DNA of 13,514 nt from Candidatus Thorarchaeota archaeon (lineage in GTDB: Archaea; Asgardarchaeota; Thorarchaeia; Thorarchaeales; Thorarchaeaceae), in contig JAEOUG010000119.1 of the NCBI GenBank assembly GCA_016839445.1, forward strand, positions 1 through 13,514, read 5' to 3'. Both the position numbers and the translations under genes were made by a program. Of this stretch, positions 1 to 13,514 are shown piece after piece. How positions within the stretch are numbered: position 1 is the stretch's first letter; every line of letters starts with the position of its first letter. A model generated the notes under the pieces. It saw only the letters and a program-made list of their open reading frames with translations, ran no database searches and was not told the DNA's origin.

Positions 1-149
1 CCTTCCGGCAGGTGCAGTACCTGGTGCTGAGGGCCCAGCGGTATTCATCGTATGACCTGGTGGACCTGCGGCTCTCAGCCATCAACCTCTACGCAGGCCA
101 GGAGACCCAGGTGGAGGACTTCGAGAGCGGGGACGGGACGCTGGATGGA
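1..149 (+). repeat. Constant-region repeat copy 1 (cut by window edge)
   Basis: Aligns without gaps to 1480-1628 with 16 mismatches in 149 nt by manual count; the first 43 nt are identical. Confidence 0.97.
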
Positions 150-893
150 TCATTTGGGAGTGTTGACGACCAGGCGGAACAGAAAACCGATGGTACTCTG
201 TCAACTGCTACTGATTCCATAGAAATCTATTGGACTGGTTGGTGGCCCACAGCGCACTTTGAAGTGCACAAGGCAATCGACGATGAAACGTCGCTGGATT
301 TCCACCTATGTGTTGATATTCTTGGGTCAGCGTCCATACTTGAGATTGACTACACACTGTACGGATATGAGGAACTGAGTGAGGAAGAGGCCGAACAGGT
401 TACTGATGAGATCGAGCAGAGTGGCGGTATTCCTCTCGGTGAGGTGGTATCGACCATGGCCCAATTTCTCACGCTCTATTGGCTAGGATTGGAGGTCTTT
501 GCTAGGATATGCACACCAGCGACGGAAACATTCTTCTGGGTAGCTCTCGGAGGCTTCATTGCATGCTGTTTCATGTACTTCGCATTCTTGGTTTGGAGCG
601 TTCAGCAGTCTGATGCTCCACGATGGCTCGCCGCTCTCACCTTCCTTACTTCCGCCATTGTGTTTCTGTGGCGGAGACACCAAAACAGCAATCTTGCCTC
701 AGCTATAGTCGAGAAGTGTCCACTGACAACTAGGATTGGCCACATGTTCAGTGACGTATGGGGGCTCTCGGCGTTTCGAGACAAGTGGGACAACGTCCTT
801 GCACGAACTCACTATGGCCTTGCGCTGGTGAGTCTCGTTTTGTGCGTCGCAGCCTTTTTCTTCTTCTCTGCAATCATGACTGGAGTGCTATGA
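3..893 (+). CDS. Cassette 1: 5'-partial polymorphic membrane protein (constant repeat-encoded segment, YWTGWWP domain, variable ~4-TM C-terminus)
   Basis: Frame is open from the window edge (TTC CGG CAG GTG...) to TGA 891-893, so the GTG at 12 is probably internal. The first 49 codons are shared with cassette 2. Then come YWTGWWP (228-248), FHLCVDILG (300-326), an acidic stretch and four hydrophobic helices. Confidence 0.8.
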   Translation, partial: FRQVQYLVLRAQRYSSYDLVDLRLSAINLYAGQETQVEDFESGDGTLDGSFGSVDDQAEQKTDGTLSTATDSIEIYWTGWWPTAHFEVHKAIDDETSLDFHLCVDILGSASILEIDYTLYGYEELSEEEAEQVTDEIEQSGGIPLGEVVSTMAQFLTLYWLGLEVFARICTPATETFFWVALGGFIACCFMYFAFLVWSVQQSDAPRWLAALTFLTSAIVFLWRRHQNSNLASAIVEKCPLTTRIGHMFSDVWGLSAFRDKWDNVLARTHYGLALVSLVLCVAAFFFFSAIMTGVL

Positions 894-953
894 CCCATGC
901 CTGAGACAACCGACACCATGCTGGCCGCAAGTGACCTGCTTCTGAAAACAAGA

Positions 954-959
954 AGGAGG
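954..959 (+). promoter_or_regulatory. Shine-Dalgarno AGGAGG for the partner gene at 968
   Basis: AGGAGG lies 8 nt upstream of GTG 968. Confidence 0.75.
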
Positions 960-967
960 CCTTTGGA

Positions 968-1279
968 GTGATTCTCGAAGTCACTGTGATCTTGGTCGTC
1001 ATAACAGAGGCTCTGCTCTTGTGGTTTCTGAAACGAGTCCGCAAGACCAGAGGCCTCACAGATTCATCCTGGTACTCGAGGAATGTCTGCAGTATGTTTC
1101 GGTCTGTCCTCTATCATGCACTCGCAGGCACCGCCGTGTGGTGTGGCTGCGTGCTCTGGCCGGTTCTCCTCATCCCGCAGTATGGCCTTTCGTTCTTGTT
1201 GGGAGTCCTGTGGTTGCTTCCAATAGCTTCAGTCGGGGGTGCACTAGATGGCTGGGACTTCGCCCGCCGAAAGGAGTAG
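968..1279 (+). CDS. Small 3-TM membrane protein, candidate cognate partner/immunity protein of cassette 1
   Basis: 103 aa, GTG start with strong SD, three hydrophobic segments, basic loop after TM1 (KRVRKTR), ends RRKE. Function is inferred from position only. Confidence 0.72.
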   Translation: MILEVTVILVVITEALLLWFLKRVRKTRGLTDSSWYSRNVCSMFRSVLYHALAGTAVWCGCVLWPVLLIPQYGLSFLLGVLWLLPIASVGGALDGWDFARRKE

Positions 1280-2279
1280 TCCTGCCTGCCAGATCGAGGC
1301 CACAGAAGCCCCTCTTCGGAGCGTTCTAGGTCGCTTCACGGCCAATGTGGGTAGCTCTTGGGTACTCACAAGTCGCTGTCGAACTGACAGGATCTACCGG
1401 CACGCAGGCCGCAACAACCACAAAATCAAGGACTCTGGAGGGACCCTTGCCTCAGGGAGCCTGGGAGAGGTGGCCAACCCCTTCCGGCAGGTGCAGTACC
1501 TGGTGCTGAGGGCCCAGCGGTACTCCGCCTACGACCTGGTGGACCTCAGGCTCTCCGCCATCAACCTCTACGCGGGCCAGGAGACCGAGGTGGAGAGCTT
1601 TGAGAGCGGAGACGGGACGGTGGAGGGAGAGACCGGAGCAGCAGAAGGGGAAGTGGACAACCATCTTTCTGATGCCAGTAGTATGATGGTGTTGTACTGG
1701 ACAGGATGGTGGCCGCAGCTCCATTTCGTGGCGTCATCGGAATCCAGAGGTACATTGTTCCATCTAAAGGTCGATCTCCTTGGTAACTCAGAGATCGTCC
1801 AGGCGGACACGTTTGGAGCAGAAAGCCAGGACTTCGAGAATGCGCTACTCTTCGGAGAGTGGGCATTTGTCGTGGGCCTGCAGCTATTTGGTCTGTATCT
1901 TGTCTGCGCTGCGGCAGAGAGAATACCTGCAACTGGTTGGTGGGGAGTAGCAGCAGTCATACTGACGATGGTTCTCATCGCGGCCTACGTATGGATCACG
2001 GCATGTAGACTCGTTGAGAATGGGATCAAGAGTGCTGGGGGCATGTCCTTCTGGTTTTTGCAGCTCTCAGTTGCTATGATTTGTGTTGCTGCTGGTGTCA
2101 AGAGAGTGGGAAGTGTGGCGGCTTCTGCGATCATGTACTTCCTCAAACTGATAATGCATGTCCCTGAGGGTGTGGAAATCAAGAAGGGGGGAATCTGGAC
2201 TGCTCTCGTCTTCGTAACGATGGCTGCGGTCTTCTTCTTCTACTATGGGCATTTTTATGGACTCAGCACGAAGGTGTGA
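1248..2279 (+). CDS. Cassette 2: probable orphan C-terminal module (homology begins ~1420), constant segment plus YWTGWWP domain plus variable 4-5 TM C-terminus
   Basis: 343-aa open frame. KIKDS...GSLGEVANPFRQVQYLVLRAQRY...FESGDGT is shared with the other copies; YWTGWWP 1695-1715; FHLKVDLLG 1758-1784. The first ~57 codons match nothing in the window, so the true start, or whether it is translated at all, is uncertain. A GGGGGTG does lie 6 nt before ATG 1248. Confidence 0.75.
   Translation: MAGTSPAERSSPACQIEATEAPLRSVLGRFTANVGSSWVLTSRCRTDRIYRHAGRNNHKIKDSGGTLASGSLGEVANPFRQVQYLVLRAQRYSAYDLVDLRLSAINLYAGQETEVESFESGDGTVEGETGAAEGEVDNHLSDASSMMVLYWTGWWPQLHFVASSESRGTLFHLKVDLLGNSEIVQADTFGAESQDFENALLFGEWAFVVGLQLFGLYLVCAAAERIPATGWWGVAAVILTMVLIAAYVWITACRLVENGIKSAGGMSFWFLQLSVAMICVAAGVKRVGSVAASAIMYFLKLIMHVPEGVEIKKGGIWTALVFVTMAAVFFFYYGHFYGLSTKV
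1420..1628 (+). repeat. Constant-region repeat copy 2 (overlaps both other copies)
   Basis: 1420-1497 matches 2986-3063, including an exact 30-mer GGGAGCCTGGGAGAGGTGGCCAACCCCTTC at 1455-1484 and 3021-3050. 1480-1628 matches 1-149. Confidence 0.97.
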
Positions 2280-2292
2280 CGCTATGATTGAT

Positions 2293-2298
2293 GAGGTG
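2293..2298 (+). promoter_or_regulatory. Archaeal-type Shine-Dalgarno GAGGTG for the partner gene at 2307
   Basis: GAGGTG lies 8 nt upstream of GTG 2307. Confidence 0.7.
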
Positions 2299-2306
2299 GT
2301 GAGAGA

Positions 2307-2714
2307 GTGCTGCAAGCGATCGTGCCCTTGATTTCTCTGCTAGTGGGCGTTGCCCTGATGCTGGCTTCCCAACTCTACATCGATGCTGTTGTTGCTGTAG
2401 TGCAGAACAAGGAAATCAAAGGACCGGCGGTAACTCAAGGCAAGGGTCGGTCCCCCATGACCGGAGAGACCTTCTCGGGCGCCTCGTTTGGGTTCTATGC
2501 ACGTAGCAGAGCGTGGTGGTACGTATCCTGGACAGTCATGGTTGGCTCGGGTCTCATTCTTACAGAAGTGACCATCTTCGTCTTGATGATGGAGTTCCTG
2601 ACGATTGTCCCGATGACCGAGTGGCTTCTGGGCCTCATTCTCCCAACATTCCTCGCAGTCATCGTGCTTGAATCAGCCATCAGCTCATTGAGAGAGCTCA
2701 GGCGTCATGAGTGA
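2307..2714 (+). CDS. Small 3-TM membrane protein, candidate cognate partner/immunity protein of cassette 2
   Basis: 135 aa, GTG start with SD, 27 nt after the cassette 2 stop, three hydrophobic segments, ends RRHE. Confidence 0.78.
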   Translation: MLQAIVPLISLLVGVALMLASQLYIDAVVAVVQNKEIKGPAVTQGKGRSPMTGETFSGASFGFYARSRAWWYVSWTVMVGSGLILTEVTIFVLMMEFLTIVPMTEWLLGLILPTFLAVIVLESAISSLRELRRHE

Positions 2715-2834
2715 TGCAGGATGATGAACTTCGACCGATACAGGGTGGTCTCTCTCGGTCCATTCCTCGCAGGGCAGGGTCCAGTAGGAGTGCGATGATG
2801 TCAATAGGAAGATGGCAGTGTTGACAAGTAATTC

Positions 2835-3065
2835 GTGTTGGAGGGAAATCTAAGTAGACTTGCCTTCAAGGGGGGAATACCCGTGATTGCGCAGTACCAC
2901 ACAAAGGTCCGCCTTTTGCCCAGCGACATCTACGGGAGTTTCTTCCGGATCGGTGAGCTGAAGGTGGAGGATGGTGGGGTGATCTACAAGATCAAGGACA
3001 GTGAGAGTACCATCGCCAGTGGGAGCCTGGGAGAGGTGGCCAACCCCTTCAGGCAGGCGCAGTGA
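2835..3065 (+). pseudogene. Truncated constant-region fragment (cassette 3 remnant)
   Basis: Encodes YKIKDSESTIASGSLGEVANPFRQAQ-stop, homologous to HKIKDSGGTLASGSLGEVANPFRQVQY. TGA 3063-3065 replaces the Tyr codon and no homology follows. The 5' boundary is uncertain. Confidence 0.75.
2986..3063 (+). repeat. Constant-region repeat copy 3 (truncated)
   Basis: Ungapped match to 1420-1497 with a 30-nt exact core. Confidence 0.95.
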
Positions 3066-3162
3066 GTCGTATTCAGTTCGTGAAGGTGCTCCACACGCGC
3101 TTGACATTGCACCGAATACGATATATGCCGAGGTGGGAATGGATGTGGGCAAGGGAAGAACT

Positions 3163-3396
3163 ATGGGCAAGTCCGAGATAGATGAACGGGGCAGGGTCAC
3201 CATACCAAAAGAAGTCAGAGAGAAGGCTGGTCTGAAGGCAGGCGACAAGCTCTTGCTGACTGCTGACAACAAGCGAGTCATCATGGAGAAGGTGGTCAAC
3301 CTTGACAGATTCATTCAGGAACTAAAAGGCTGTATCACAGTCCAGGGCGATTTGGACCCTTTGAGGCTCAAAGAGATCTGGAGAACTGCAGAATGA
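3163..3396 (+). CDS. vapB: AbrB/MazE/SpoVT-family DNA-binding antitoxin (VapB-like)
   Basis: MGKSEIDERGRVTIPKEVREKAGLKAGDKL is the swapped-hairpin signature; ATGA overlap with the downstream PIN gene. Start could alternatively be ATG 3139. Confidence 0.9.
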   Translation: MGKSEIDERGRVTIPKEVREKAGLKAGDKLLLTADNKRVIMEKVVNLDRFIQELKGCITVQGDLDPLRLKEIWRTAE

Positions 3397-3797
3397 TGAT
3401 CGTGGACTCGAACATATGGGCGTACTATTTCGACAAGAGCCTCGGTGAACACGAGAAGGTGGTCAAGCCGCTAGAAACCGCATTGAAGAAAGAACGAGTT
3501 GCTGTGAATGCGACTATTGTCGTGGAAACCCTTCACTATCTCGTGAAGCGACTCGGACCTATTGTGGGTGGCGACAAGGGCAGGGTGTTCACAGGACTGG
3601 GATTCCCAATCTATCCCCTAGATGTCGAAACGCTTCGAGTGACGAACCAGAAGCTGTGTGACTTCACCCACCTTGGAATTGGAGGACGAGACGCATCGAT
3701 TCTGGCCACGATGGAGCTCGAAAACCTAGCGCAGATCATGACTCATGACCAGGCATTCAAGAGGATCCCAGAACTTGACGTAATTGATCCAGTCTAA
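3393..3797 (+). CDS. vapC: PIN-domain ribonuclease toxin, VapC family
   Basis: 134 aa with PIN acidic residues in IVDSN, IVVE, GRDASI and THDQAF; translationally coupled to the AbrB gene. Confidence 0.92.
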   Translation: MMIVDSNIWAYYFDKSLGEHEKVVKPLETALKKERVAVNATIVVETLHYLVKRLGPIVGGDKGRVFTGLGFPIYPLDVETLRVTNQKLCDFTHLGIGGRDASILATMELENLAQIMTHDQAFKRIPELDVIDPV

Positions 3798-3815
3798 GGG
3801 AATCAGTGCCGGGAA

Positions 3816-5333
3816 TTAGATCAAGCTGGAGAATCCAATCCTACCTCTGACGAGGTTCCGCAGAGTCCCAACAAGCTGGTCTCGATGCACCCGGACCTGT
3901 TCCATCGAGTCTCTATCACGTATCGTGATTGTCCCATTTTCGAGCGTATCATAGTCAATAGTGACACAGAAGGGTGTGCCGACCTCATCCTGGCGTCGGT
4001 ACCTTCTGCCAATCGACCCGCTCTGGTCGAATTGCGTGATCAGTCCTGATTCGACTATTCCTTCGAAAATCTCTGTCGCCGGCCCCATCAATTCAGGCTT
4101 CCCCATCAACGGAAACACTGCCACTTGGATAGGAGCTACCTCCGGTGGAAACTTCAACCAATTCGTGTCGCGCTCCTCCCCCTCCTGGAAGGAGTTGTCG
4201 ATCAGGCAGTAGAGGGGCCTCTCAATCCCGAACGCAATCTCCAGGACATTGGGCACGATCGGCTTCTTGTCTACCTTGACATGCAGGTTCTCCTTGGAGA
4301 ACTCCTGGTGCCGACCAAGATCATAATTGCCTCTGTCGTGGACACCGCAGCACTCAACCCAACCGAAGCTCTCTGTGTGCACCTCGACGTCCCAGGCATC
4401 CTTAGCGTAGTGTGCCCTCTCGTCCATGAGGTGCTGTCTCAGTCGCATCTTCTGTACGTCGAACCCCATCTTCCGGAAGATGTCGAAGGCCAAGTAGACA
4501 CACCATGCGTAGGCAGGCTTCTGGAAGTAGCCCTTCTTCACAGCCTCGCTCATCTTCACATTGAGCGGCTTCTCATCTCCCTTCTCCTGTAGCTGTATCG
4601 GCAGAAGGGGGAGTTTCTCATCTTCGATATCCTCGAACTGCGGCCAGTCTATCTCATCCTGCTCAAGCAAGAAGATCTGACCCTCTGTCTGGGTGAACTC
4701 ACGGAGACGCAACATCCCCTGACGTGGAGAGATCTCATTACGATAGGCCTTGCCAATCTGGAACACCTGAATGGGCAGTTTGTCCCGGAAGAATGTAACG
4801 AAGCGCTTGAAGAGCAAGTAGGTGCCTGTGGCGGTCTCAGGTCGCAGGTACGCATCTTGGTCTAGCCCCAGCCTGGTCTTCAACATGAGGTTATAGGTCT
4901 CCACGGGGCCGAGGGCACCCTTGCAGGAGGGGCACACCACGCCGAGGTCTCCCAACATCTTCGTGAGACCCTCAACAGTGTGGTCCGTTATCTTGGCGTC
5001 AGGCGACTGCTCAAGTATCAGGTTGTCTGCGCGATAGACCTGGCCGCACTTGGTGCAGGCTGTGACAGGATCAATGAACCCATCGAGATGGCCCGAAGCC
5101 TTCCAGACCATCTCTGGGGAGACAGTCGGACACTCAACCTCCCAGAAACCGGCCTTGACAAAGGACGAGCGGATAGCGCTCTCAAGCCTGTTCTTCAGCA
5201 GTTTGCCCAGAGGACCCAAGTCATAGAATCCTGAGCTACCGCCATAAATCTCTGGAGAGGGCCCCCAATAGAAGCCCCTCTTCTTGCTGAGGCTAGCTAC
5301 TACTTCGCTGAAGTCCTTGTCTTCGGTAGTCAT
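3816..5333 (-). CDS. glyS: Glycine--tRNA ligase, archaeal/eukaryote-type homodimeric class II
   Basis: EIYGG..GFYDLGPLG, VWKASGHLDGF, YLRPETA, QIGKAYRNEISPRQG..RLREFTQ.E, ERAHYA, GSIGRRYRRQDEVGTPFCVTID anticodon-binding domain, CTKC/CPSC zinc ribbon. Confidence 0.98.
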   Translation of the reverse strand: MTTEDKDFSEVVASLSKKRGFYWGPSPEIYGGSSGFYDLGPLGKLLKNRLESAIRSSFVKAGFWEVECPTVSPEMVWKASGHLDGFIDPVTACTKCGQVYRADNLILEQSPDAKITDHTVEGLTKMLGDLGVVCPSCKGALGPVETYNLMLKTRLGLDQDAYLRPETATGTYLLFKRFVTFFRDKLPIQVFQIGKAYRNEISPRQGMLRLREFTQTEGQIFLLEQDEIDWPQFEDIEDEKLPLLPIQLQEKGDEKPLNVKMSEAVKKGYFQKPAYAWCVYLAFDIFRKMGFDVQKMRLRQHLMDERAHYAKDAWDVEVHTESFGWVECCGVHDRGNYDLGRHQEFSKENLHVKVDKKPIVPNVLEIAFGIERPLYCLIDNSFQEGEERDTNWLKFPPEVAPIQVAVFPLMGKPELMGPATEIFEGIVESGLITQFDQSGSIGRRYRRQDEVGTPFCVTIDYDTLENGTITIRDRDSMEQVRVHRDQLVGTLRNLVRGRIGFSSLI

Positions 5334-5489: not shown

Positions 5490-8400
5490 ATGAGCGTGCG
5501 GACTAGTGGGAACATCCATTGGAAGGGTGTGATACTAGTCGCAATACTCCTCCTTCTCAACCTGGGACCTGTGCCTTCGGTCCAGCCAGGAGCAAGTCCT
5601 GATGATCTCTCTCCGCGGAATTCGTCGGAGGACGTAATCACCCCGGCCGCCGAACCCATCCAAATCTGGGAAACAGCGCTCGAGGGACTCCTTCCCTGTG
5701 CTATCTCAGCGGCCGACCTTACTGGTGATGGGAAGCTCGAGATGGTTCTGCGAACTGACGATGGGGTGCATTGCATCGATTCCTTGGGCCAGATTGTGTG
5801 GTCATATGACATGCAGAGCTACATTGAGGAGATGACATTTCCCATTGCCGACTTCAACAGAGACAACCTACTGGAAGTATTGGTCACAGATGTCAGCAGG
5901 GACGAGATCGTAATCCTTGACGGGCAGGGAAACGTGGTCTCGAGTACCCACTTCACGCAAGTCTGGGCAAACGCCCCATGCGTGCTGGATGTCAATGGCG
6001 ACTCGTGGCTAGAGGCCATTGTGGCAACCGGACAGCAGTTCACATGCATGGACTCACGGGGTTGGTTGCGGTGGGCAACCGAGATCGATGTCGGACCGTT
6101 TGAATCTGAGATAACGTCAAACATCTGTGCGGCGGACCTGGATCACGATGGCAGCGCGGAGATTATCGCGACCGTTGACAGTGGACACCTGGTCTGCCTA
6201 GACTCAGCGACTGGTGACCTAGTCTGGTATAGAGCCGTCACTGGAGTGAGCTCTATCTCAGCCATTACGGTGGCCGATATTGAAGGGAACGACAACCTTG
6301 AGATTCTGGTGTCTACCCTTGAGAGATATGTCTACTGCATTGATTCGGATGGCTTGATCTCCTGGTACTACAGACCGCCTTTGGCACTCATCGCACAGCC
6401 GTGTGTTGTTGACATCGACAACAGCGGAGACCAAGAAGTGCTGCTCTCTGGAAGTGGAGGGGGCGTCTACTGCTTGAGTTCCAGCGGGGCACTCGAATGG
6501 GCCTTCTCCACCTCCGCGGACCTTGGATCCCCGTCTGTTCTTGACGTGGATGGCAACGGTTACCTAGAGTGTATTGTCCCAGGGACTCGGAGCTATGTAC
6601 TAAGCCATCTCGGGGGCGCGAAGTGGACCATCGACTTTGGTGCCAGAGGATCGCCATGTGTCGCCGACATAGACCTTGATGGCAGAACAGAACTCGTCAT
6701 CTGCGACGAGGACACGGTCAGGTGCTACCGGATCAGCGAAACCCCTCAGAACCCAGGAGCGTATCCTTGGACGCCAAAGACTGCACAGGCAGAAATTCGT
6801 AGGAGAGGAGTCTATTCTGATGGCGATTCTGACTTACTGACTGATAACCACGAACGCCTTTCCGGGAGTTTCCCTGACTCATCTGATTCAGACATGGATT
6901 CCGTAGACGACTTCTCTGAGTTCGCTACATCAGGATGCCCTAGGGGCGGAGGGATTCTTTCTACTCCCCTGGGTATCTTGGACTGGGATTCCGGCGGCGG
7001 CGATGATGCCGATGCGTGCATAGCAGACATCGGGGGGGACGGACTTCAGGAGCTCGTAATGCGGTCTGACCGCGGCCGCATCACCGTTACAGATCGGCGC
7101 TTCATCGAGGAGTGGGAGTATGATCTGTTGATGCAAGACATCGGGCCAATCTGCGTTTTTGACGCTGAGGGTGATGGGCATCTTGAAACGGTCTTTGGTA
7201 GAGAAACAGGATGGATCACGTGTCTAGACCACAGCGGTGTTCTGAGTTGGCACATCTTTGTTGGGGGACGGTCAATCTATATGCCATGCGTCGTCGATCT
7301 CCAAGGCGACGGCCTCATGGAGATAGTCTGTGTGACGAGTCTGGGCGGTGTGGTATGTATTGACGGCGAGGGTGAGTTGCTCTGGAGCGATAGCATCGGT
7401 CACGAACCGACGGAGCCCGTAGCCGCAGACATAGACCTGGACGGAGATATCGAAATCCTTGTGGGCTCGGAAGATGGCGGGATTTTCTGTTTCAGCGATT
7501 CGGGGGAACTTGAGTGGAGCCGCACGAACGAAGACACATCTGTGAGGCTCTCGATTACAGAGGAACTGGGCGGCGACTTCAGAATCATGGCGGGCACAAG
7601 TTCGGGCCAGATTTGGTACATGGACAACACTGGAACCCCACTGTGGACATTCGAGGGAGACATACCCTGTTGTGCTCCCTGCGCTATCGATCTGAATCGC
7701 GACGAGGCTGCGGAACTATGTTTCAGTTCCGGGAGCAAGATCTGGTGTCTGGATTCATCGGGGATTCCGATCTGGAACTTCACGGCGGATTCATCTGTGG
7801 GTCCAACCGTGACGATTCTCGATGTCGACTGTGACGACACCATGGAGGTCCTCTTCGGCACAAGCGGAGGCTTTGTCTACTGCTTGGACGATGTGGGTTC
7901 TTTGGAGTGGATATTCAGGACCTCTGGAGGAGTCTGCAGCCTGACTGCAGGTGACACAGACGGCAACGGAATCTCTGACATATTGGCCGGGACCTCAACT
8001 GGTTCGTATCATACGTTCATTGTGTCAGGAGTAAGGCCGGAAGAGAGAACCTACGCGTGGCCCCCAATGAACTCCAGAGGTAACGGTTGGCGCTCCGGAT
8101 GGTTCGACGACCATGACGGAGACACCCTGACAACAGGATTCGAACTCTGCGCAGGTTCTAATCACACGAGCATGGATGGGGACACAGACTCCATAGATGA
8201 CAAGAACGAGTATCTGCAGTTGACCAATCCAATGAGGGATGATGTGCCTCCAGGGGAAATTGACGACCTCTCTCTTGCTTCTGTGAATGGAACAGTCGCC
8301 ACGATCTCGTGGACAGCGACAGGAGAGAACCAGTTGCTTGGAAGAGCGACATCCTACGTAGTCGTTTTTGCGCTGGTTCCTGAGGTACTCGCAAATGTGT

Positions 8401-8741
8401 TCCTGAACGACATCTACAACCAGAGCTGGATTCCCCTCAATCCCGGTGACACTGAGGAGAGGGCAGTTGATGGCCTTATCCCCGGCTCGAGGTACGCATT
8501 TGCGATTCGCGCGGTCGATGAGCAGGGTAATGAGGGACCGCTCTCCAATGTCCTAACGTTCTCCACCTCAGGAGGTGGGGGAGGGGGCTTGATAACCCCG
8601 GCTAATGTGGCCGCATGGAGTGTTTCTGCAGTCTCTCTAGCAGTTATCGCAGTGTTCACAAGGAAATCATACAGAGCTCTAAGACGAGAACAAGAGCCCG
8701 AGGACGAATCTGATGTCCCAGACCTTGAGGACCTGCTTTAG
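5490..8741 (+). CDS. Secreted, C-terminally anchored protein: two FG-GAP/VCBS-like (PQQ-like) beta-propellers, Asp-rich TSP3-like Ca-binding motifs, FN3-like domain, TM helix, acidic tail
   Basis: N-terminal hydrophobic signal (GVILVAILLLLNL); ~16 repeats of aDlDgDG..Eiv......v.ClD..G...W; DGDSDLLTD and DHDGDTLTT motifs; PPGEIDDL...ISWTA...DGLIPGSRYAFAIRAVDEQGNEGPLSN (FN3); TM near 8604-8657. GGAGG 5484-5488 better fits GTG 5496 as the start. Confidence 0.9.
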   Translation: MSVRTSGNIHWKGVILVAILLLLNLGPVPSVQPGASPDDLSPRNSSEDVITPAAEPIQIWETALEGLLPCAISAADLTGDGKLEMVLRTDDGVHCIDSLGQIVWSYDMQSYIEEMTFPIADFNRDNLLEVLVTDVSRDEIVILDGQGNVVSSTHFTQVWANAPCVLDVNGDSWLEAIVATGQQFTCMDSRGWLRWATEIDVGPFESEITSNICAADLDHDGSAEIIATVDSGHLVCLDSATGDLVWYRAVTGVSSISAITVADIEGNDNLEILVSTLERYVYCIDSDGLISWYYRPPLALIAQPCVVDIDNSGDQEVLLSGSGGGVYCLSSSGALEWAFSTSADLGSPSVLDVDGNGYLECIVPGTRSYVLSHLGGAKWTIDFGARGSPCVADIDLDGRTELVICDEDTVRCYRISETPQNPGAYPWTPKTAQAEIRRRGVYSDGDSDLLTDNHERLSGSFPDSSDSDMDSVDDFSEFATSGCPRGGGILSTPLGILDWDSGGGDDADACIADIGGDGLQELVMRSDRGRITVTDRRFIEEWEYDLLMQDIGPICVFDAEGDGHLETVFGRETGWITCLDHSGVLSWHIFVGGRSIYMPCVVDLQGDGLMEIVCVTSLGGVVCIDGEGELLWSDSIGHEPTEPVAADIDLDGDIEILVGSEDGGIFCFSDSGELEWSRTNEDTSVRLSITEELGGDFRIMAGTSSGQIWYMDNTGTPLWTFEGDIPCCAPCAIDLNRDEAAELCFSSGSKIWCLDSSGIPIWNFTADSSVGPTVTILDVDCDDTMEVLFGTSGGFVYCLDDVGSLEWIFRTSGGVCSLTAGDTDGNGISDILAGTSTGSYHTFIVSGVRPEERTYAWPPMNSRGNGWRSGWFDDHDGDTLTTGFELCAGSNHTSMDGDTDSIDDKNEYLQLTNPMRDDVPPGEIDDLSLASVNGTVATISWTATGENQLLGRATSYVVVFALVPEVLANVFLNDIYNQSWIPLNPGDTEERAVDGLIPGSRYAFAIRAVDEQGNEGPLSNVLTFSTSGGGGGGLITPANVAAWSVSAVSLAVIAVFTRKSYRALRREQEPEDESDVPDLEDLL

Positions 8742-9072: not shown

Positions 9073-10137
9073 TTATTCCCGCAGCCGCCGCACCAAGACA
9101 ACAGCCTCACCCAGTGCCAGCACACCAAGAATCATCGAGAGTCCAATGAGGCCAAGGTTCAGAATCGCGGCGGATTGGGAACCAGGACCTCCTTCTAGGG
9201 CTGCCGTCAATGCTCCAAGATTGTGGGTCATTATTGCAGTATAGTCCGATAGACCTGAGAAGAAGACTGCTCTCCACCAGACGAGAGTGCCACCGTAATC
9301 ATCAACCAGCTGGTACGCAAACTCCCCGGCTGTTTGCAGTCTGGCAACGTCCGAACCAAGGATGAGAGAGATGGACCCGTTGAGAAAGGCATTCTGAACA
9401 TCGATGAGTTCGTCACCGGAGATTGTCTGGCCCTCGTTGATCAGAACCGCCTCGACGCCAATGCCGAAGGCTTCAGCCACGTAGGCCTCGGCCGGGAACA
9501 CGACAACAGCATTCATGGAGGAGAAGTGGTACTCATCATCAGCCTCCAGAATCAGCTCCTGCAGGTCATCGAGCTGGTTCAGGAAGTGCCCGAAATTGCT
9601 GTTCCACACGTCAGATAGCGCAGCATTCAGGGTTGTCAGGGCCGCGCGAGTTGCGTTGGCAATGGCAACGGCGTTCGAGGGTAGAAGCCACCACGCGTGT
9701 GGATTCCCATCATGGTCGTGGTCCTGAGCAGTCGTGTGGGTGTCTTCGCCTGGGAAGGGTGACAGCTCTGCGCCGTAATCCTCGTAGTTCTCAAGTGCTC
9801 CGGGGTCGTGGAGTGTGATGAAAGGAGTTGCGGTCTGGTTCGCGAGGGCTTCTTCCCAGTCGAAGTGCCCAGTGAAGACCAGAAGATCCGCACTCTCTGC
9901 AATCGCAATCACTTGAGGAGTCACGGTGAAAGAGTGAGGCTCGAATCCCTCAGAGAGGAGGATAGAGGTCTCGACATAGGCCCCACCAACTTCCGAGACA
10001 ATCCCCGACAACGGAGCAACTGAAGTCGCCAACAGGAATGAAGGCGACGTCTGACCTTCAACACGGGTCGTTGCTCCTGACAGCAAGAGTGGTAGCAGGA
10101 AGGCCACGAGAACAAGGGCCGAACGACGGTTCCTCAT
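9073..10137 (-). CDS. Metal ABC transporter substrate-binding protein, ZnuA/TroA (cluster A-I) family, with C-terminal TM anchor
   Basis: Signal peptide MRNRRSALVLVAFLL, GFEPHSFTVTP, ADLLVFTG, His-rich loop HTTAQDHDHDG, NPHAWW, DY.AIM.HNL, C-terminal hydrophobic helix. ATG at 10137 preferred over 10149. Confidence 0.9.
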   Translation of the reverse strand: MRNRRSALVLVAFLLPLLLSGATTRVEGQTSPSFLLATSVAPLSGIVSEVGGAYVETSILLSEGFEPHSFTVTPQVIAIAESADLLVFTGHFDWEEALANQTATPFITLHDPGALENYEDYGAELSPFPGEDTHTTAQDHDHDGNPHAWWLLPSNAVAIANATRAALTTLNAALSDVWNSNFGHFLNQLDDLQELILEADDEYHFSSMNAVVVFPAEAYVAEAFGIGVEAVLINEGQTISGDELIDVQNAFLNGSISLILGSDVARLQTAGEFAYQLVDDYGGTLVWWRAVFFSGLSDYTAIMTHNLGALTAALEGGPGSQSAAILNLGLIGLSMILGVLALGEAVVLVRRLRE

Positions 10138-10139
10138 GA

Positions 10140-10167
10140 TTATTAACATTCATAGGGATGTTAATAA
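10140..10167. promoter_or_regulatory. Palindromic operator in divergent promoter, candidate NikR site
   Basis: Perfect 10-bp inverted repeat TTATTAACAT-N8-ATGTTAATAA; the right arm is also TATA-like on both strands. Confidence 0.85.
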
Positions 10168-10201
10168 GTACAGAGGTCCAACCCTACTCGGATGTGTCGT
10201 A

Positions 10202-10597
10202 ATGCCGGTTGTAGCCGTTTCGATGCAGGACAATGATCTAGGAGAACTGGAGCGCCTCAAATACGAGGGAGGTTTCTCCAACAGGTCGGAAGTAGTCCGC
10301 CATGCACTTCAGCTCCTCCTCGCAGAGCATCGATCGCTGGAAGACATCAGAGGAGAGATGACTGCTGTTCTAACAGTGAGCTTCGCAGAAGACGGAAAGG
10401 ACCGGAGCTGCAGTCGTGTCCAACACGACTACAATCATCTGATATCAGCCATGATGCATGCACACACCATAGGAGGGGGCTGCATCGAGGTCTTGGTCAC
10501 GAGAGGCGATGCTGATGATGTGCGTGCCTTTCTGAGAAAGCTGCGCTCGCAGAAGAGGGTGGAGAGGGTGAGAGTAGAACTATTCGGAGAGGATTGA
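10202..10597 (+). CDS. nikR: NikR-family metal-responsive regulator (RHH plus ACT-like metal-binding domain)
   Basis: MPVVAVSM...GFSNRSEVVRHAL ribbon-helix-helix; QH...HAH.....CIE matches the NikR His76/His87/His89/Cys95 ligand pattern. Confidence 0.88.
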   Translation: MPVVAVSMQDNDLGELERLKYEGGFSNRSEVVRHALQLLLAEHRSLEDIRGEMTAVLTVSFAEDGKDRSCSRVQHDYNHLISAMMHAHTIGGGCIEVLVTRGDADDVRAFLRKLRSQKRVERVRVELFGED

Positions 10598-10598
10598 C

Positions 10599-11393
10599 AT
10601 GAACCTTCTAGAAGCAGAAGATCTTGCAGTAAGATACCCGAACGGGACATGGGCTCTGCACAATGTAACATTCAGCATCGAGGCCCCCAGCTTCACCGCA
10701 GTAATCGGCCCCAACGGATCAGGGAAGAGCACGCTCCTGCGGACCCTGCTCGGGCTAATCGAGCCTGCAAGGGGACACAGTGGTCTGATGGGGTATGACT
10801 CGGTTCGCCAGAAGTCCAAGATTCGCAAACTGGTCCGGTATGTCCCTCAGAGGGAGGGGATTGCAGCCAACATCCCTCTGAAGGCCATGGATATTGTGCT
10901 GATGGGTCGACTCCTGAAGAAGGCACCTCCAAGAATTGCCTCGTCCAAGGACAGGGACTTGGCCCTGGACGCACTGAAGCAAGTGGATATGCTTGATTTG
11001 AAAGACAGGTCCTTCTCCGAACTCTCGGGCGGCCAGAAGCAGAGGGTCTTGGTTGCTCGAGCTCTTGCAGGAGAGGGACCCGTCTTGATGCTTGACGAGC
11101 CGCTGGCAGGCACTGATGCTCACAGCCAGGACCTGATAGTTGAGGTTCTCGGGAAGTACCACAATGAGCACGATGTCAGCATCATTATGGTTACCCATGA
11201 CCTCAATCCAATACACACCTATGTCGAGGACGTTCTCTTGCTGAAGAACACACTCGTTGGTATCGGCACACCGTGTGATGTGATGGACATTGAGATGCTG
11301 AAGAGAGTCTACGGACCCTCAGCAAGGATAGTGGAGTACGCAGGTCACAGATACTGCATAACAAGAGATTCAGGATTTGATCGCCATGATTGA
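10599..11393 (+). CDS. Metal ABC transporter ATP-binding protein, ZnuC/MntA family
   Basis: Walker A GPNGSGKST, YVPQ Q-loop, LSGGQKQRV signature, LMLDEP Walker B, VTHD switch. Confidence 0.95.
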   Translation: MNLLEAEDLAVRYPNGTWALHNVTFSIEAPSFTAVIGPNGSGKSTLLRTLLGLIEPARGHSGLMGYDSVRQKSKIRKLVRYVPQREGIAANIPLKAMDIVLMGRLLKKAPPRIASSKDRDLALDALKQVDMLDLKDRSFSELSGGQKQRVLVARALAGEGPVLMLDEPLAGTDAHSQDLIVEVLGKYHNEHDVSIIMVTHDLNPIHTYVEDVLLLKNTLVGIGTPCDVMDIEMLKRVYGPSARIVEYAGHRYCITRDSGFDRHD

Positions 11394-12315
11394 CATCATC
11401 ACATTCATCTTGCAGACTCCGTTTCTCCAGAGAGCGATAATCGGAGCTATTCTTATTGCGGCAGTCGCTGCGACAAGCGGTACATTCCTTGTTTACCGAG
11501 GTCTCTCCTTCATGACCTCTGGGGTGGCCCACGCAGCCCTAGGTGGCGCAGCGCTAGGTCTCTTCTTGGAGGACAGCGGTATCGCCCCTTGGTTCGACCC
11601 TGTGCTAGGAGCACTTCTCTTTGCAGTTCTAGTCGCCATCATCACAGGATACGCGGGGGAGAGTGGAATGGCAGAGAAGATGGAAGTGGCGGTCGGGGTC
11701 TCGTTTGCGCTCTCTATGAGCTTGGCAGTCTTCCTGATGTACTACATTCCACCTGCGGACACTCTGATCATCTGGGGATACCTAGTTGGAGACCTTCTAC
11801 TCCTAACAACCTCCAACATCGTCACTCTGGGTCTTGTGACGCTAGTCTTGTTGATTGTCTCGATCATCTTTGGAAAGGAGTTCATCTACGTCAGCGTGGA
11901 TATGGAGGGGTCAATGGCTCACGGTATGAACGCACGGGCGTACCATTACCTCATGTTGATCACAGCGGCCTTGGCAATCACGCTGGCTACAAAGGCAGTA
12001 GGAGCGATTCTGGTGTACGCGATTCTGGTAGCACCGGCCGCAGCCTCAAACGAGTTGCTGAAGTCAGTGAGAGCTGTTGTGATATCCGTCTTCGTCATTG
12101 CACTAGGGACAGAGCTTGTTGGCATCGCCACTTCGTTCGTAATCCGCGTATCGCCCAGTGCAGTTGCGGGTGTTCTCGCGGCTCTATCGTATGTAGTGGC
12201 GTTGACAATCAAGAGAAGGAGAATGATGGTTGACGAGGATACAATCCCCGATGCAGAACCTCCTCTCGTGGGTCAAACGATCAGGGAAAGCCAGCATGAC
12301 CACCACGACCACTGA
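11386..12315 (+). CDS. Metal ABC transporter permease, ZnuB/ABC-3 family, His-rich C-terminus
   Basis: FLQRA, GTFLVYRGLSFM..GVAHAALGG, YLVGDLL, KAVGAILV.A.LVAPAAA; overlaps the ATPase stop; ends QHDHHDH. Confidence 0.95.
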   Translation: MIDIITFILQTPFLQRAIIGAILIAAVAATSGTFLVYRGLSFMTSGVAHAALGGAALGLFLEDSGIAPWFDPVLGALLFAVLVAIITGYAGESGMAEKMEVAVGVSFALSMSLAVFLMYYIPPADTLIIWGYLVGDLLLLTTSNIVTLGLVTLVLLIVSIIFGKEFIYVSVDMEGSMAHGMNARAYHYLMLITAALAITLATKAVGAILVYAILVAPAAASNELLKSVRAVVISVFVIALGTELVGIATSFVIRVSPSAVAGVLAALSYVVALTIKRRRMMVDEDTIPDAEPPLVGQTIRESQHDHHDH

Positions 12316-12375
12316 TGGGCATCACTCTTTTATGGAAATGACGAACCGGCGTATCAAAATTGACGAGGTCTCAAG

Positions 12376-13514
12376 ATGGTGAAGGACTCGAGGATTTCAG
12401 GATTCTACAAGCTCCCCAGAGAGGAGCGCGTTCGCAAGCTTATGGAAGTGACAGGTCTTGACGAAGAAACCCTTGGCCCCCTTGCCGAACCGGGCAAAGT
12501 AGACCTCGAGGTTCTCGATCACATGATAGAGAACGTCGTGGGATCAATGACGCTCCCTCTTGGCATAGCGACGAACTTCCTAGTCAACGGGAAGGACTAT
12601 CTCGTCCCCATGGCCATTGAGGAACCCTCGGTTGTGGCTGCCGCAAGCAACGCAGCAAGGATGGCCAGAGACCTCGGAGGATTCACTGCAACAGACACTG
12701 GTCCTGTCATGATAGCACAGATACAGCTTGTCGAAGTCACAGACCCCTCTGCAGCAAAGGACAGGATTATGGAGTCGAAGGACGGACTCGTGGCCTTCGC
12801 TAACGAGCAAGATCCTATTCTTGTCAGATTTGGCGGAGGAGCCAAGGATCTGAGAGTCCGACTCATAGACTCGAAGGTTGGACCCATGGTCATCACTGAA
12901 CTGCTTGTCGACTGCCGCGATGCGATGGGAGCTAACGCAGTCAATACGATGGCTGAGGCGTTGGCACCAAGAATAGAGAGGATTACAGGAGGGAGAGTCA
13001 TCCTTCGAATCCTATCTAACCTCGCAGAGTTCAGACTGACGAGAGTCCATGCTACGTTTGACAAGGAAATGCTCGGCGGCGAAGAGGTAGTCAATGACAT
13101 AGTCGCCGCTTGGGCCTTCGCAGAGGCAGACCCCTACCGTTGTGCTACTCACAACAAGGGCATCATGAACGGAATCGATGCAGTGGTCATCGCCACAGGC
13201 AATGACTTCCGAGCCATAGAGGCAGGGGCGCACAGCTATGCTGCCGTGGGTGGGTACAGCTCTCTGACCAAGTACGAGAAGGATGGCAACGGAAACCTTC
13301 ACGGCTCGATTGAAGTGCCGATGGCGGTTGGTCTGGTCGGCGGAGCAACCAAGGTTCATCCTGTAGCACGAGCATGCGTGAAGATTCTTGGTGTTGAGAC
13401 TGCAGCAGAGCTAGGTCACGTAATAGCTAGTGTTGGCCTTGCGCAGAATATGGCCGCGTTGCGCGCGCTGGCCTCAGAAGGCATCCAGAAGGGCCACATG
13501 GCCTTACATGCGCG
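12376..13514 (+). CDS. mvaA: Hydroxymethylglutaryl-CoA reductase, class II (bacterial/degradative-type), 3'-partial
   Basis: Manual translation from ATG 12376 (GAGGT upstream): SRISGFYKL, MIENVVG, VPMAIEEPSVVAAAS, DAMGANAVNT, ATHNKGIMNG, GNDFRAIEAGAH, GLAQNMAALRALASEGIQKGHMALHA. No stop in the window, hence absent from the ORF track. Confidence 0.96.
   Translation, partial: MVKDSRISGFYKLPREERVRKLMEVTGLDEETLGPLAEPGKVDLEVLDHMIENVVGSMTLPLGIATNFLVNGKDYLVPMAIEEPSVVAAASNAARMARDLGGFTATDTGPVMIAQIQLVEVTDPSAAKDRIMESKDGLVAFANEQDPILVRFGGGAKDLRVRLIDSKVGPMVITELLVDCRDAMGANAVNTMAEALAPRIERITGGRVILRILSNLAEFRLTRVHATFDKEMLGGEEVVNDIVAAWAFAEADPYRCATHNKGIMNGIDAVVIATGNDFRAIEAGAHSYAAVGGYSSLTKYEKDGNGNLHGSIEVPMAVGLVGGATKVHPVARACVKILGVETAAELGHVIASVGLAQNMAALRALASEGIQKGHMALHA

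Follow-up and report, generated by a model that had tools for sequence, protein, structure and literature searches.

A candidate polymorphic cassette array of membrane tails and small membrane partners in Thorarchaeota

Three same-strand copies of one coding repeat lie near the left end of a Thorarchaeota contig, and two of them run on into unlike hydrophobic C-termini. Are these copies spare modules of a larger gene, exchanged by recombination, or are they ordinary related genes? The initial annotation of this DNA favoured the former. It compared the copies with the orphan modules of bacterial CDI and Rhs loci, predicted a long parent gene outside the contig and guessed that the host was archaeal, which the assignment to Thorarchaeota confirms. 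Here, we explored this question in the window, that is, the complete contig of 13,514 nucleotides, and in the genomes of related archaea.

The repeat and its units in the window

The first base of the window falls inside copy 1 of the repeat. Nucleotide comparison recovered all three copies on the + strand at the offsets first noticed: bases 1–149 are 89% identical to bases 1480–1628 (offset 1479), and bases 1420–1497 are 82% identical to bases 2986–3063 (offset 1566). Compared per 30 nt, copies 1 and 2 are 83–100% identical over the first 150 nt, after which identity falls abruptly to 10–37%.

In a metagenome-assembled genome, such a repeat might be an artefact of assembly or binning. The contig begins inside the repeat, public contigs branch or break at every constant segment, and bin contamination is 6.45%. 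However, the copies are mutually diverged (82–89% identical) and have unique flanks, the unique parts of the window were found with 0–3 differences in contigs of four runs, each run belonging to a different study, and dozens of loci in other genomes show the same tandem layout, in part on contigs of more than 100 kb. Thus, we give an artefact hardly any credence.

Unit 1 (p1; positions 3–893, + strand) is an ORF of 296 aa that is open at its 5' end at the contig edge and covers positions 46–326 of the family HMM. It holds the end of the constant segment (bases 1–149), followed by a variable juxtamembrane region and a helical membrane tail. Because the contig edge cuts copy 1, p1 could itself be the tail of an unassembled parent, the alternative being an orphan. 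A crude hydropathy scan placed two of its hydrophobic segments above threshold, and three to four can be seen by eye. The p1 tail shares 37% identity with that of an orphan in genome G033, and the partners of both units are likewise related. The small membrane partner of unit 1 (s1; positions 968–1279, + strand, 103 aa, about three hydrophobic helices) belongs to a family of diverged partners with three helices; about 17 relatives occur in the retrieved arrays. For s1 there was no Pfam, NCBIfam or PADLOC match at the curated cut-off; the sole Pfam hit, TraS, was far below it (E = 0.064).

Unit 2 (p2; positions 1248–2279, + strand, 343 aa) is an orphan cassette. It opens with a non-homologous 5' leader, which shares bases with the 3' end of s1, and continues through the constant segment (about 1420–1628) and a juxtamembrane region with the motifs WTGWWPxLH and VDLLG into a helical tail; the same scan found five hydrophobic segments above threshold. 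The database holds 12 relatives of 209–387 aa. The p2 tail is 37% identical to that of a unit in genome G032 (L037); s2 has only two relatives, and the partner of L037 is one of them. This partner of unit 2 (s2; positions 2307–2714, + strand, 135 aa) again has about three hydrophobic helices and no Pfam, NCBIfam or PADLOC match at the curated cut-off, its sole Pfam hit being Aa_trans below that level (E = 0.0018). The ORFs and the hydropathy scan therefore agree with the first description of two copies running in frame into differing hydrophobic C-termini, each with a different small membrane ORF behind it.

Unit 3 (p3; positions 2835–3092, + strand) is a decayed stub with two TGA stops inside the match and an ORF of 76 aa at 2835–3065. 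It keeps a fragment of the lectin module and the constant segment (2986–3063), and its stop at 3063–3065 stands just past the residues FRQAQ. Read-through adds only about nine degenerate codons with two more stops, and neither a tail nor a partner follows. The N-terminus of p3 matches that of P0006, an intact relative of 377 aa. A vapBC pair adjoins the window array.

Parent genes, orphan arrays and the junction

The predicted long parent gene exists in same-genus relatives, but not in the assembly of the window genome. Two same-genus genomes carry parent frames of 1,319 and 1,294 aa, both secreted, and ten complete parents of at least 1,000 aa were found among the retrieved loci. In the secreted parents of about 1,300 aa from the same genus, the repeat forms the end of the final lectin-like module. 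No parent ectodomain was detected in the assembly of the window genome (89.8% complete), and because of this absence the parent of the window locus is inferred from relatives.

In all five independent genomes with a parent-headed array (G001, G368, G352, G355 and G356), the array opens upstream with the parent and continues on the same strand with copies truncated at their 5' end, each of which is paired with a small partner. Some other arrays have no parent on their own contig. The 5' ends of 44 orphans are ragged and lie inside the parent's last lectin-like module, of which an orphan retains just the final strands, the constant segment, and the parent's signal peptide is absent from them; the units are thus truncated pieces rather than ordinary full-length paralogs. 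Short forms outnumbered long forms by 70 to 10 in the database sample. When three parents were aligned, identity per 50 columns was 46–79% over most of the ectodomain, apart from a single drop to 33%; it was 43% in the junction block (columns 1051–1100) and 13–30% past column 1100. All three are therefore long first genes whose N-terminal body is conserved and whose C-terminal region is polymorphic.

From structure models, a parent of about 1,050–2,100 aa is predicted to consist of a signal or anchor helix, a caspase-like (clan CD) alpha/beta domain, beta domains and two to three concanavalin-A-like lectin modules. C-terminal to these modules, a disordered acidic linker that opens with a conserved Asp-Gly leads into a small helix-plus-sheet juxtamembrane domain (WTGWWPxLH, VDLLG) and then into a bundle, hypervariable in sequence, in which about five long helices are packed. 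The lectin module was modelled with pLDDT of about 85–96 over residues 1–211. It matched the carbohydrate-binding module of a phage baseplate (5ly8; Z 18.6, rmsd 3.4, 210 residues aligned) as well as calreticulin and GH16 (Z about 13), with 475 Foldseek matches at E ≤ 0.001. The repeat modules that hold the constant segment are accordingly modelled as having a concanavalin-A-like lectin/glucanase fold, with putative sugar binding.

For the N-terminal domain of the parent, the best structural match was CHAT protease (Z 11.8, 159 residues aligned), with legumains at Z 9.1–9.9 and metacaspase and caspases at Z 7.9–8.9, in a list that also holds generic Rossmann-like and binding-protein folds at Z 8–9.3. 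His105-Gly106 follows the strand at 99–103 and Cys140 follows the strand at 134–137; all of these residues are at least 90% conserved. No Pfam or PDB sequence match was obtained for this domain, and no relative is annotated as a peptidase. Judging by fold and motif, it may be a caspase-like domain. The helical tail matched only designed or generic helical proteins (Z < 13, below the meaningful level for helices) and no known toxin or pore fold, with Atlas scores of at most 0.83.

The constant segment is the sole DNA homology between units. In every genome examined, DNA similarity between the units of one genome is confined to this segment and ends about 740 nt before the stop codon. In all seven genome groups examined, blastn alignments between units were 31–720 nt long (mostly 50–310 nt) at 66–95% identity, and in no unit did an alignment reach the final 590 nt. 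The homology has a fixed 3' edge; within genomes 75–95% identity is kept in the segment, and the remainder is unalignable.

Recombination at the constant segment carries tail and partner modules from one genome to another and from one kind of position, orphan or parent, to the other. Upstream of the junction, a mosaic orphan in genome G003 is 70–93% identical to the parent of its own genome; downstream, it is 64–87% identical to the tail of the G001 parent, compared with 12–36% to its own parent's tail. Comparison of the tail of the G001 parent with that of the G003 orphan gave a synonymous difference of 0.46, as against 0.79 for the two ectodomains, several dS values in the analysis being saturated. 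Moreover, six of the ten parent tails have a relative (≥50 bits) in orphan position in another genome, and in the best case of such sharing the tail is 77% and the partner 71% identical. Because of the mosaic orphan and the tails common to parent and orphan positions, recombination at the junction is required. The cassettes are thus far from invariant and syntenic, and a cassette-by-recombination organisation is well supported. Of the four outcomes that the initial annotation had named as fatal to its idea, each was checked and none was observed. The system offers a clean natural case of recombination at a defined protein junction.

Pairing of tails and partners and what it may mean

Behind 52 of 54 units we found a small ORF with at least two hydrophobic segments, which starts from 78 nt before to 215 nt after the unit's stop. 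We compared tails and partners over 1,326 unit pairs. Partners were similar in 13 of the 37 pairs with similar tails (≥50 bits) versus 9 of the 1,289 other pairs, and none of 2,000 label shuffles reached 13; the other 24 of the 37 had no detectably similar partner at ≥50 bits. Because dN/dS of tails and partners is 0.04–0.31 (several dS values saturated), their coding capacity appears to be maintained. The s1-type partner is present in 14 genomes, all of which have tails, and in none of the 58 tail-negative genomes of the family; that is, no "immunity-only" genome was seen. Runs of solo partner-like genes occur within arrays. Tandem immunity genes are described for polymorphic toxin loci in parts of Zhang et al. 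(2012, PMC3482391).

The system was found, patchily, in 27 of 85 other genomes of one Thorarchaeial family and in none of 314 genomes elsewhere in the phylum. Pfam, NCBIfam and PADLOC named no part of it, and Pfam gave no family in either of two parents at E ≤ 0.1, in line with the initial annotation, which recognised no named family in the conserved motifs. We found no description of the system in the literature searched, and no delivery machinery.

With modest confidence, we favour the reading that the window holds the array of downstream cassettes belonging to a polymorphic, lineage-specific system of surface proteins, with the tail as a membrane toxin and the partner as its immunity protein. 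Recombination would put a stored tail and its partner onto the expressed parent. The lectin modules would bind glycans of neighbouring cells, the clan-CD-like domain might free the tail by cutting in the linker, and the tail would act on the membrane as a pore-forming or depolarising effector, with the partner as cognate immunity protein in the producer's membrane. Several observations speak against a toxin. The tails are variants of one architecture, unlike the sets of unrelated toxin folds in CDI and Rhs systems, and one would expect a polytopic tail to enter the membrane of the very cell that makes it. In addition, "immunity-only" genomes are missing, and similar tails often lack similar partners (24/37 pairs).

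Some of these observations would fit a non-lethal role. The same cassettes could serve self/non-self recognition or compatibility, as in adhesion, membrane exchange or kin cell fusion, with tail and partner as lock and key and with contact mediated by the lectins. One tail architecture together with partners that are all three-helix proteins would suggest a single interacting pair that has diversified and not an assortment of toxin folds; no toxin domain can be recognised, no genome has partners but lacks tails, and the extracellular juxtamembrane domain falls in the variable part. Co-variation fits equally well, and VARTIG, the closest archaeal analogue, carries the same open hypothesis. However, silent stored cassettes and strings of solo partner-like genes would be more usual in a toxin/immunity arsenal, and nothing in the data shows cell-to-cell transfer. 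To our knowledge, it is rare for known identity systems to maintain extended series of truncated spare alleles, which also counts against this role. We regard it as a real but lesser possibility. A further proposal joins the two: an archaeal membrane-level allorecognition, independent of bacterial polymorphic toxins, in which a hypervariable tail/partner pair reprogrammed from silent cassettes would decide which neighbours are tolerated, adhered to or admitted to membrane exchange, and mismatch would be punished by membrane damage. This we advance tentatively, as a rather unlikely outcome.

The units could also be fast-evolving paralogous membrane proteins, the short copies being independent genes with a small subunit, the long forms stalk fusions and the shared segment a conserved domain. 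The short copies do have start codons, open frames and signs of purifying selection, they outnumber the long forms 70 to 10 in the database sample, and some arrays lack a parent on their contig. Nevertheless, this explanation is improbable, since the short copies start raggedly inside a beta-sandwich that could not fold from its last strands alone, and lack a signal peptide. The DNA homology is limited to that fragment, with its fixed 3' edge and 75–95% identity within genomes; the mosaic orphan and the tails shared by parents and orphans require recombination at the junction, and parents head the array in 5/5 cases. Less probable still is that the system varies a surface receptor or acts as an anti-virus decoy, with cassette switches altering either the receptor used by a virus or a membrane effector of abortive infection. 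The phage baseplate module as best structural match of the lectin module, the patchy, lineage-specific distribution and the vapBC pair beside the array would agree with it, but the exposed ectodomain is conserved and the variable part is mostly membrane-embedded. Moreover, PADLOC gave no match, and no virus or defence genes were seen while the arrays were mapped.

Under the favoured toxin/immunity reading, the system is a candidate new class of membrane-acting effector plus protector. A full cassette logic is built from parts that no library recognises and is confined to one Asgard family, with a variable module that is membrane-located and not a soluble nuclease. Cassette systems of the polymorphic-toxin type are a hallmark of bacterial social conflict, and Asgard archaea are the closest known relatives of eukaryotes. 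The system gives a testable handle on how uncultured Asgard archaea interact with and discriminate their neighbours.

Comparison with known systems

The CDI loci (cdiA-CT/cdiI) are described in passages of Poole et al. (2011, PMC3150448) as having downstream fragments that encode alternative C-termini, nearly always with a small cognate gene behind; modules are exchanged between species, and orphan modules of one species are found fused to full-length genes of another. As far as those passages go, all of these organisational features are matched here, namely the long first gene, the fragments, the small genes, the exchange and the fusion of orphan to parent. The analogy to orphan modules of CDI and Rhs loci is thus upheld by the parent-headed arrays, the junction-limited homology, the co-variation, the sharing of six of ten parent tails and the mosaic orphan. 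The parts differ, however. CDI proper was rejected, because Pfam found no TPS domain or FHA repeats and the junction motif is different; CdiA/CdiB homology and the VENN motif are likewise missing. The archaeal host, the lectin-like stalk and the single hypervariable membrane-tail architecture contrast with the diverse soluble toxins of CDI, toxicity here being a candidate property. Archaea have no outer membrane.

For Rhs-CT/rhsI and other polymorphic toxins, sections of Zhang et al. (2012, PMC3482391) report a conserved junction motif that marks the variable C-terminus, small genes directly downstream, and orphan modules. They also report a caspase-like domain as an autoprocessing module, usually just upstream of the toxin domain, and state that classical polymorphic toxin systems are scarce in archaea and look bacterial in origin where present. 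Measured against those sections, the junction motif, the downstream small genes, the orphan modules and the tandem immunity-like genes are alike, whereas the clan-CD-like domain is N-terminal here and not just before the toxin domain. A Rhs/YD-repeat toxin was rejected: the parents have no Pfam family, and the folded parts are concanavalin-A-like sandwiches and an alpha/beta domain. YD repeats, a DPxGL-type junction and known toxin or immunity families are absent.

A variable membrane-associated determinant with a cognate small membrane protein is also known from Proteus IdsD/IdsE and from pore-forming colicins, whose membrane immunity proteins have three to four helices; neither is homologous to the archaeal system, their delivery routes (T6SS, or Tol/Ton import) are not known from archaea, and both serve as leads only. 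TsaI, the antagonist of TspA, is a polytopic membrane protein. From the portion of the source used here (10.1101/2022.01.07.475358), TspA of the Staphylococcus aureus type VII system is a polymorphic toxin that depolarises membranes and is neutralised by TsaI; homologous recombination among tandemly arranged paralogues drives the evolution of strings of non-identical immunity genes. On that portion, TspA/TsaI comes closest to a functional model of a tail that acts on membranes and has a membrane protein as partner, but it is bacterial, carries an LXG/T7SS delivery domain and has no sequence or fold relation to the archaeal system.

The VARTIG system of Thermococcales has, according to extracts of Makarova et al. 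(2021, PMC8416519), no counterpart found outside that order. Membership in it was rejected, as the parents have no Ig-type Pfam match but concanavalin-A-like modules and a membrane tail. Going by the same extracts, both systems are archaeal, lineage-restricted and patchy, with a large secreted first gene that has a recombining hypervariable C-terminal region, and with variable downstream genes, including membrane proteins, that track subfamilies. Neither has a recognisable toxin domain, and the same three hypotheses are open for both. However, VARTIG is built of Ig domains, one of which is its variable part, whereas the system described here combines a concanavalin-A-like stalk with a variable juxtamembrane domain and a helical membrane tail, a sharp junction, and regular orphan-plus-partner repeats.

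Array architecture and distribution

The window is one complete contig of a metagenome-assembled genome, which consists of 190 contigs, with 89.8% completeness and 6.45% contamination. A coding repeat occurs three times in the window, always on the same strand. Copies 1 and 2 match over bases 1–149 and 1480–1628 (89% identity), and copies 2 and 3 over bases 1420–1497 and 2986–3063 (82% identity). Copies 1 and 2 share 83–100% of their nucleotides per 30 nt over 150 nt, after which identity drops abruptly to 10–37%. The initial annotation had described two of the copies as continuing into a membrane C-terminus, each with a small membrane gene behind it, and the sequence agrees with this description. 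Unit 1 (p1; 3–893, plus strand, open at the contig edge) runs in frame into a hydrophobic C-terminus and has a small membrane ORF of 103 aa (s1; 968–1279, plus) directly behind it. Unit 2 (p2; 1248–2279, plus) ends in frame in a hydrophobic C-terminus differing from that of unit 1, and the small membrane ORF behind it (s2, 135 aa; 2307–2714, plus) differs from s1. Copy 3 is a stub (p3; 2835–3065, plus), which stops after ...FRQAQ and is followed by about nine decayed codons with further stops. Copy 2 has a non-homologous 5' leader (1248–1420) that overlaps the 3' part of s1. P0002, a relative from the database, has a conserved version of this leader; thus, the leader-plus-cassette layout is not unique to the window but occurs in two sources or more.

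A vapBC-like pair is located at the exact point where the copy 3 stub loses its tail. It consists of a MazE/AbrB-type antitoxin ORF (3001–3396, plus; domain at residues 61–98, likely true start near 3137) and a PIN-domain gene (3393–3797, plus), which overlap by 4 nt. Beyond the pair lies a convergent glycyl-tRNA synthetase gene, and divergent from the latter is the gene of a predicted surface protein of 1,083 aa (5490–8741, plus) with FG-GAP/beta-propeller repeats, an fn3 domain, a hydrophobic helix at the N-terminus and hydrophobic segments at the C-terminus, which is unrelated to the cassette family. A metal-uptake cluster follows within 9073–13512 (ZnuA-like binding protein on the minus strand, NikR-like regulator, ABC ATPase and ABC-3 permease), and then HMG-CoA reductase, which runs off the contig end. 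Rfam and tRNA scans of the window gave no match.

A protein-database search returned 12 relatives of 209–387 aa, as well as two longer proteins (1,333 and 1,314 aa) in which the last ~330 residues are the family. In two genomes of the same genus, G001 and G003, the match ends open frames of 1,319 and 1,303 aa (ORFs of 1,319 and 1,294 aa). The prediction of a large full-length parent gene, upstream of the window or elsewhere, was therefore borne out in relatives but not in the window's own assembly, where tblastn with a parent found no parent ectodomain and tblastn with all five window proteins found no further copy of the repeat, tails or partners. Copy 1 may be the first orphan, that is, a 5'-truncated copy with its own tail and partner, or the tail of a missing parent, because the first base of the contig falls within the repeat itself, a kind of sequence at which assemblers break. 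The window array and the G003 parent gene have the same flanking genes, HMG-CoA reductase and glycyl-tRNA synthetase (84% and 74% identical at the protein level), which indicates that the two are the same chromosomal neighbourhood, rearranged.

The G001 array comprises, on one strand, the parent, a 191-aa membrane ORF, a 313-aa copy, a 111-aa membrane ORF, a 349-aa copy and a 116-aa membrane ORF. After removal of duplicate contigs, a parent heads the upstream end of a same-strand array in five independent genomes (G001, G368, G352, G355 and G356); the parents of G381 and G003 have only their own partner directly behind them. Arrays of up to about ten units also occur with no parent on the contig (e.g., G033:C39). 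In G003 (locus L023, G003:C56), the parent lies on the plus strand (9352–13236) and three inverted orphan units on the minus strand (794–5142), about 4 kb apart. Recombination between these inverted constant segments would invert the intervening segment and swap tails. The genes between the parent and the orphans, which face away from each other (794–13606), are HMG-CoA reductase and glycyl-tRNA synthetase. In another locus (L040, 7956–11371), a frameshift or sequencing error divides a parent-type gene into overlapping frames of 693 aa (N-terminal ectodomain) and 454 aa (last module and tail).

The system is restricted to one lineage. A scan of 61 relatives at E ≤ 0.001 matched nine, including the window genome itself; the other eight were among 36 further genomes of its Thorarchaeial family, and none was among 24 genomes of other families. 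The same was found for 400 genomes of the phylum at E ≤ 1 × 10−5, with 28 matches including the window genome, 27 of 85 in the rest of the family and 0 of 314 in other families. Four of 27 other genomes of the window's genus matched, and absence in incomplete genomes is no proof. A search with the parent alignment A3 gave 13 loci with parent-type genes, whose records are titled Candidatus Thorarchaeota, Promethearchaeota or uncultured archaeon; a related-locus search with alignment A2 gave 147 pattern matches, none of them confirmed. Run against 1.84 billion representative proteins, the ectodomain profile had 322 matches at E ≤ 0.001. The tail family accounted for 88 of 164 fetched database proteins (70 of 250–650 aa and 10 of at least 1,000 aa). 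Metagenome runs holding the window stretch came from marine sediment, estuary and mangrove.

Domain organization of the parent

The parent layout was derived from sequence and two AlphaFold models. Residues 9–39 form a signal or anchor helix, followed by an alpha/beta domain (residues ~45–205). Its Foldseek matches were mostly non-compact (rmsd above 20), and we therefore relied on a second structural aligner. The best match was the caspase-like CHAT protease (Z 11.8, 159 residues aligned), followed by legumains (Z 9.1–9.9) and metacaspase and caspases (7.9–8.9); generic binding-protein folds score Z 8–9.3 in the same list. His105-Gly106 directly follows one strand and Cys140 the next, and an alignment of 26 sequences shows conservation of 90% or more for both (P0015 numbering). 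A clan-CD peptidase-like domain with His105 and Cys140 as a possible catalytic pair is plausible from the model but not established, and neither sequence libraries (Pfam, PDB profile) nor the annotation of relatives gave support for a peptidase.

Two or three lectin-like repeats of ~200 residues come next, their number differing between genera; parents of the shorter kind carry the tail directly behind their counterpart of repeat 2. The last module is modelled as a concanavalin-A-like sandwich (pLDDT about 85–96). It best matches the carbohydrate-binding module of a phage baseplate, with 210 of 230 residues aligned at Z 18.6, then calreticulin, GH16 enzymes and legume lectins (Z about 13), and has 475 Foldseek matches at E ≤ 0.001. 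What the initial annotation called a constant repeat is the last three strands of this final module. The module also occurs in other very large surface proteins (P0113, P0081, P0090, P0022 and others; up to 2,385 aa) together with DUF2341, PKD and Ig-like domains, and some parents carry DUF2341 insertions, such as the 2,115-aa parent in L054.

Behind the last module, a disordered acidic linker opens with Asp-Gly. All sequences of alignment A7 have this pair, and in A5 its conservation is 90% or higher. Such alignments were a better guide than strict hand-written junction patterns, which gave 1 match in one run and 28 of 146 sequences in another. In the model, the linker is followed by a helix and a four-stranded sheet carrying WTGWWPxLH and VDLLG, and then by five long helices that complete the protein. 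Although the tails can mostly not be aligned with each other, many of them close with a short aromatic-Gly-aromatic motif (…YGW, …QGY, …LGW; alignment A1), which the window's own two tails do not have.

Tail and partner co-vary and recombine as modules

Pfam, NCBIfam and PADLOC gave no family at the curated cut-off for tails, partners or parents, and small partners had only two weak sub-threshold Pfam matches. The PDB sequence profile search found nothing at E ≤ 1, and the best score of the p2 tail in a protein atlas search (0.83, plant cellulose-synthase fragments) was below a meaningful level.

Of 63 family ORFs, 54 remained as units once duplicates (loci L039 and L043), ORFs open at the 3' end and those shorter than 200 aa had been set aside. 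In 52 of these units, a small ORF (72–228 aa, at least two hydrophobic segments) begins near the unit stop, at most 78 nt ahead of it and at most 215 nt behind it; the hydropathy counter over-splits helices, and its tail counts were not used. Tail and partner co-vary. Among the 1,326 pairs of these 52 units, partners were similar in 13 of 37 tail-similar pairs (at least 50 bits) and in 9 of 1,289 others, and none of 2,000 label shuffles reached 13, although this significance is somewhat overstated because related genomes are not independent. However, in 24 of the 37 tail-similar pairs no similarity between the partners was detected. Divergence is faster in partners than in tails (e.g., tail 81%, partner 52%), and both are under purifying selection (dN/dS 0.04–0.31, with several dS values saturated).

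Iterative searches joined 48 of 77 partner-like ORFs into one family; 25 of the 77 were not picked as a partner directly behind a tail, a few being alternative ORF calls and several forming runs of solo genes. The s1 protein has about 17 relatives, with which it makes up a three-helix family. Relatives of s2 were found only in L037, one of them directly behind a unit whose tail is 37% identical to that of p2. All 14 genomes with an s1-type partner have tails, and none of the 58 tail-negative genomes of the family has such a partner; no "immunity-only" genome was found for this partner type. Small partner-like genes of the three-helix type stand three or four in succession, uninterrupted by any tail gene, in L035 (four in a row; G003:C57, 2847–4894) and L024 (G003:C38, 1866–3937).

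Tail-plus-partner modules recombine at the constant segment. Identity among three parents is 46–79% per 50 columns along the ectodomain, apart from a single drop to 33%, then 43% in the junction block (columns 1051–1100) and 13–30% after column 1100. In all seven genome groups, blastn similarity between units was limited to 31–720 nt (mostly 50–310) at 66–95% identity; the alignments mostly end about 690–830 nt before the stop, and none enters the last 590 nt of any unit. The 5' ends of 44 orphans are ragged, their first matched model position being scattered from 1 to about 150. Orphans are without the parent's signal peptide, and, judging from the model, they would start inside a sandwich that could not fold from its last strands alone.

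The G001 parent tail is 77% identical to a 484-aa orphan tail in G003 (partners 71%), and a G033 orphan holds the same pair at 51% (tail) and 43% (partner). For six of ten parent tails, another genome holds a relative in orphan position that scores 50 bits or more; for two the matches are only weaker (41 and 43 bits), and the remaining two lack any. When the tail of the G001 parent is compared with that of the G003 orphan, synonymous difference is 0.46, against 0.79 between the ectodomains of both genomes, which indicates that the tail module is younger than its carriers. The G003 orphan is a mosaic. Upstream of ...LYADQETL it is 70–93% identical per 30 columns to its own parent and 43–77% to the G001 parent (85% to both in the first block); just downstream, it is 64–87% identical to the G001 tail and 12–36% to the G003 tail.

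Public contigs in two runs from different studies match the copy 1 constant segment without differences (bases 1–127 in one run and 14–127 in the other) and then continue into different sequence. They may represent a strain or a paralog, and give a population hint. A joint from 2999 to 1455 in one public run (6 and 2 mismatches at its sides) is probably another family member and not a rearrangement of the window locus. Gaps in the public-contig cover of the window carry no meaning, and these contigs do not reach far enough to reveal the sequence left of the window.

Functional readings and comparison with known systems

With moderate confidence, we favour a reading of the sequences in which the tail would be an effector that acts on membranes, the producer being protected from it by the cognate three-helix partner as immunity protein. 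Homologous recombination at the constant segment would place a stored tail and partner onto the expressed parent, the lectin modules may contact neighbouring cells, and the tail might be set free at the linker by the clan-CD-like domain. This reading has weak points. A polytopic tail should be expected in the producer's own membrane, there is no known delivery route, and no known toxin fold is recognisable in the tails. The main rival is a non-lethal identity or compatibility pair, which is favoured by the single architecture common to all tails; we regard it as possible but rather unlikely.

That the units are an ordinary paralog family is improbable. The conserved ectodomain is sharply demarcated from the variable tail among the three parents, and unit homology has a fixed 3' edge with ragged 5' ends. 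Tail modules also move between parent and orphan positions across genomes, and the mosaic G003 orphan argues against simple paralogy as well, as do, as a hint, the public contigs that leave the copy 1 constant segment. A virus-related role appears very improbable, and an artefact is scarcely credible.

A full-text literature search found no description of the Thorarchaeial system; an earlier mention, for instance in supplementary tables that list Asgard loci, is possible. In the parts of Makarova 2021 (PMC8416519) used here, VARTIG of Thermococcales is said to have no counterpart in other archaea, and archaeal polymorphic toxins are cited as having mostly DNase or RNase domains. VARTIG, which is described there as Ig-based, is the nearest archaeal analogue. 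The nearest functional model is TspA with TsaI, TspA being membrane-depolarising according to the portion of the preprint consulted (10.1101/2022.01.07.475358). The tandem partner-like genes of L035 and L024 resemble tandem orphan immunity genes. The Thorarchaeial proteins are none of CdiA, Rhs or MafB, as the parents contain no Pfam family; their organization nevertheless has every sequence-testable defining feature of CDI/Rhs orphan modules, as these are set out in the sections of Poole 2011 (PMC3150448) on which we drew.
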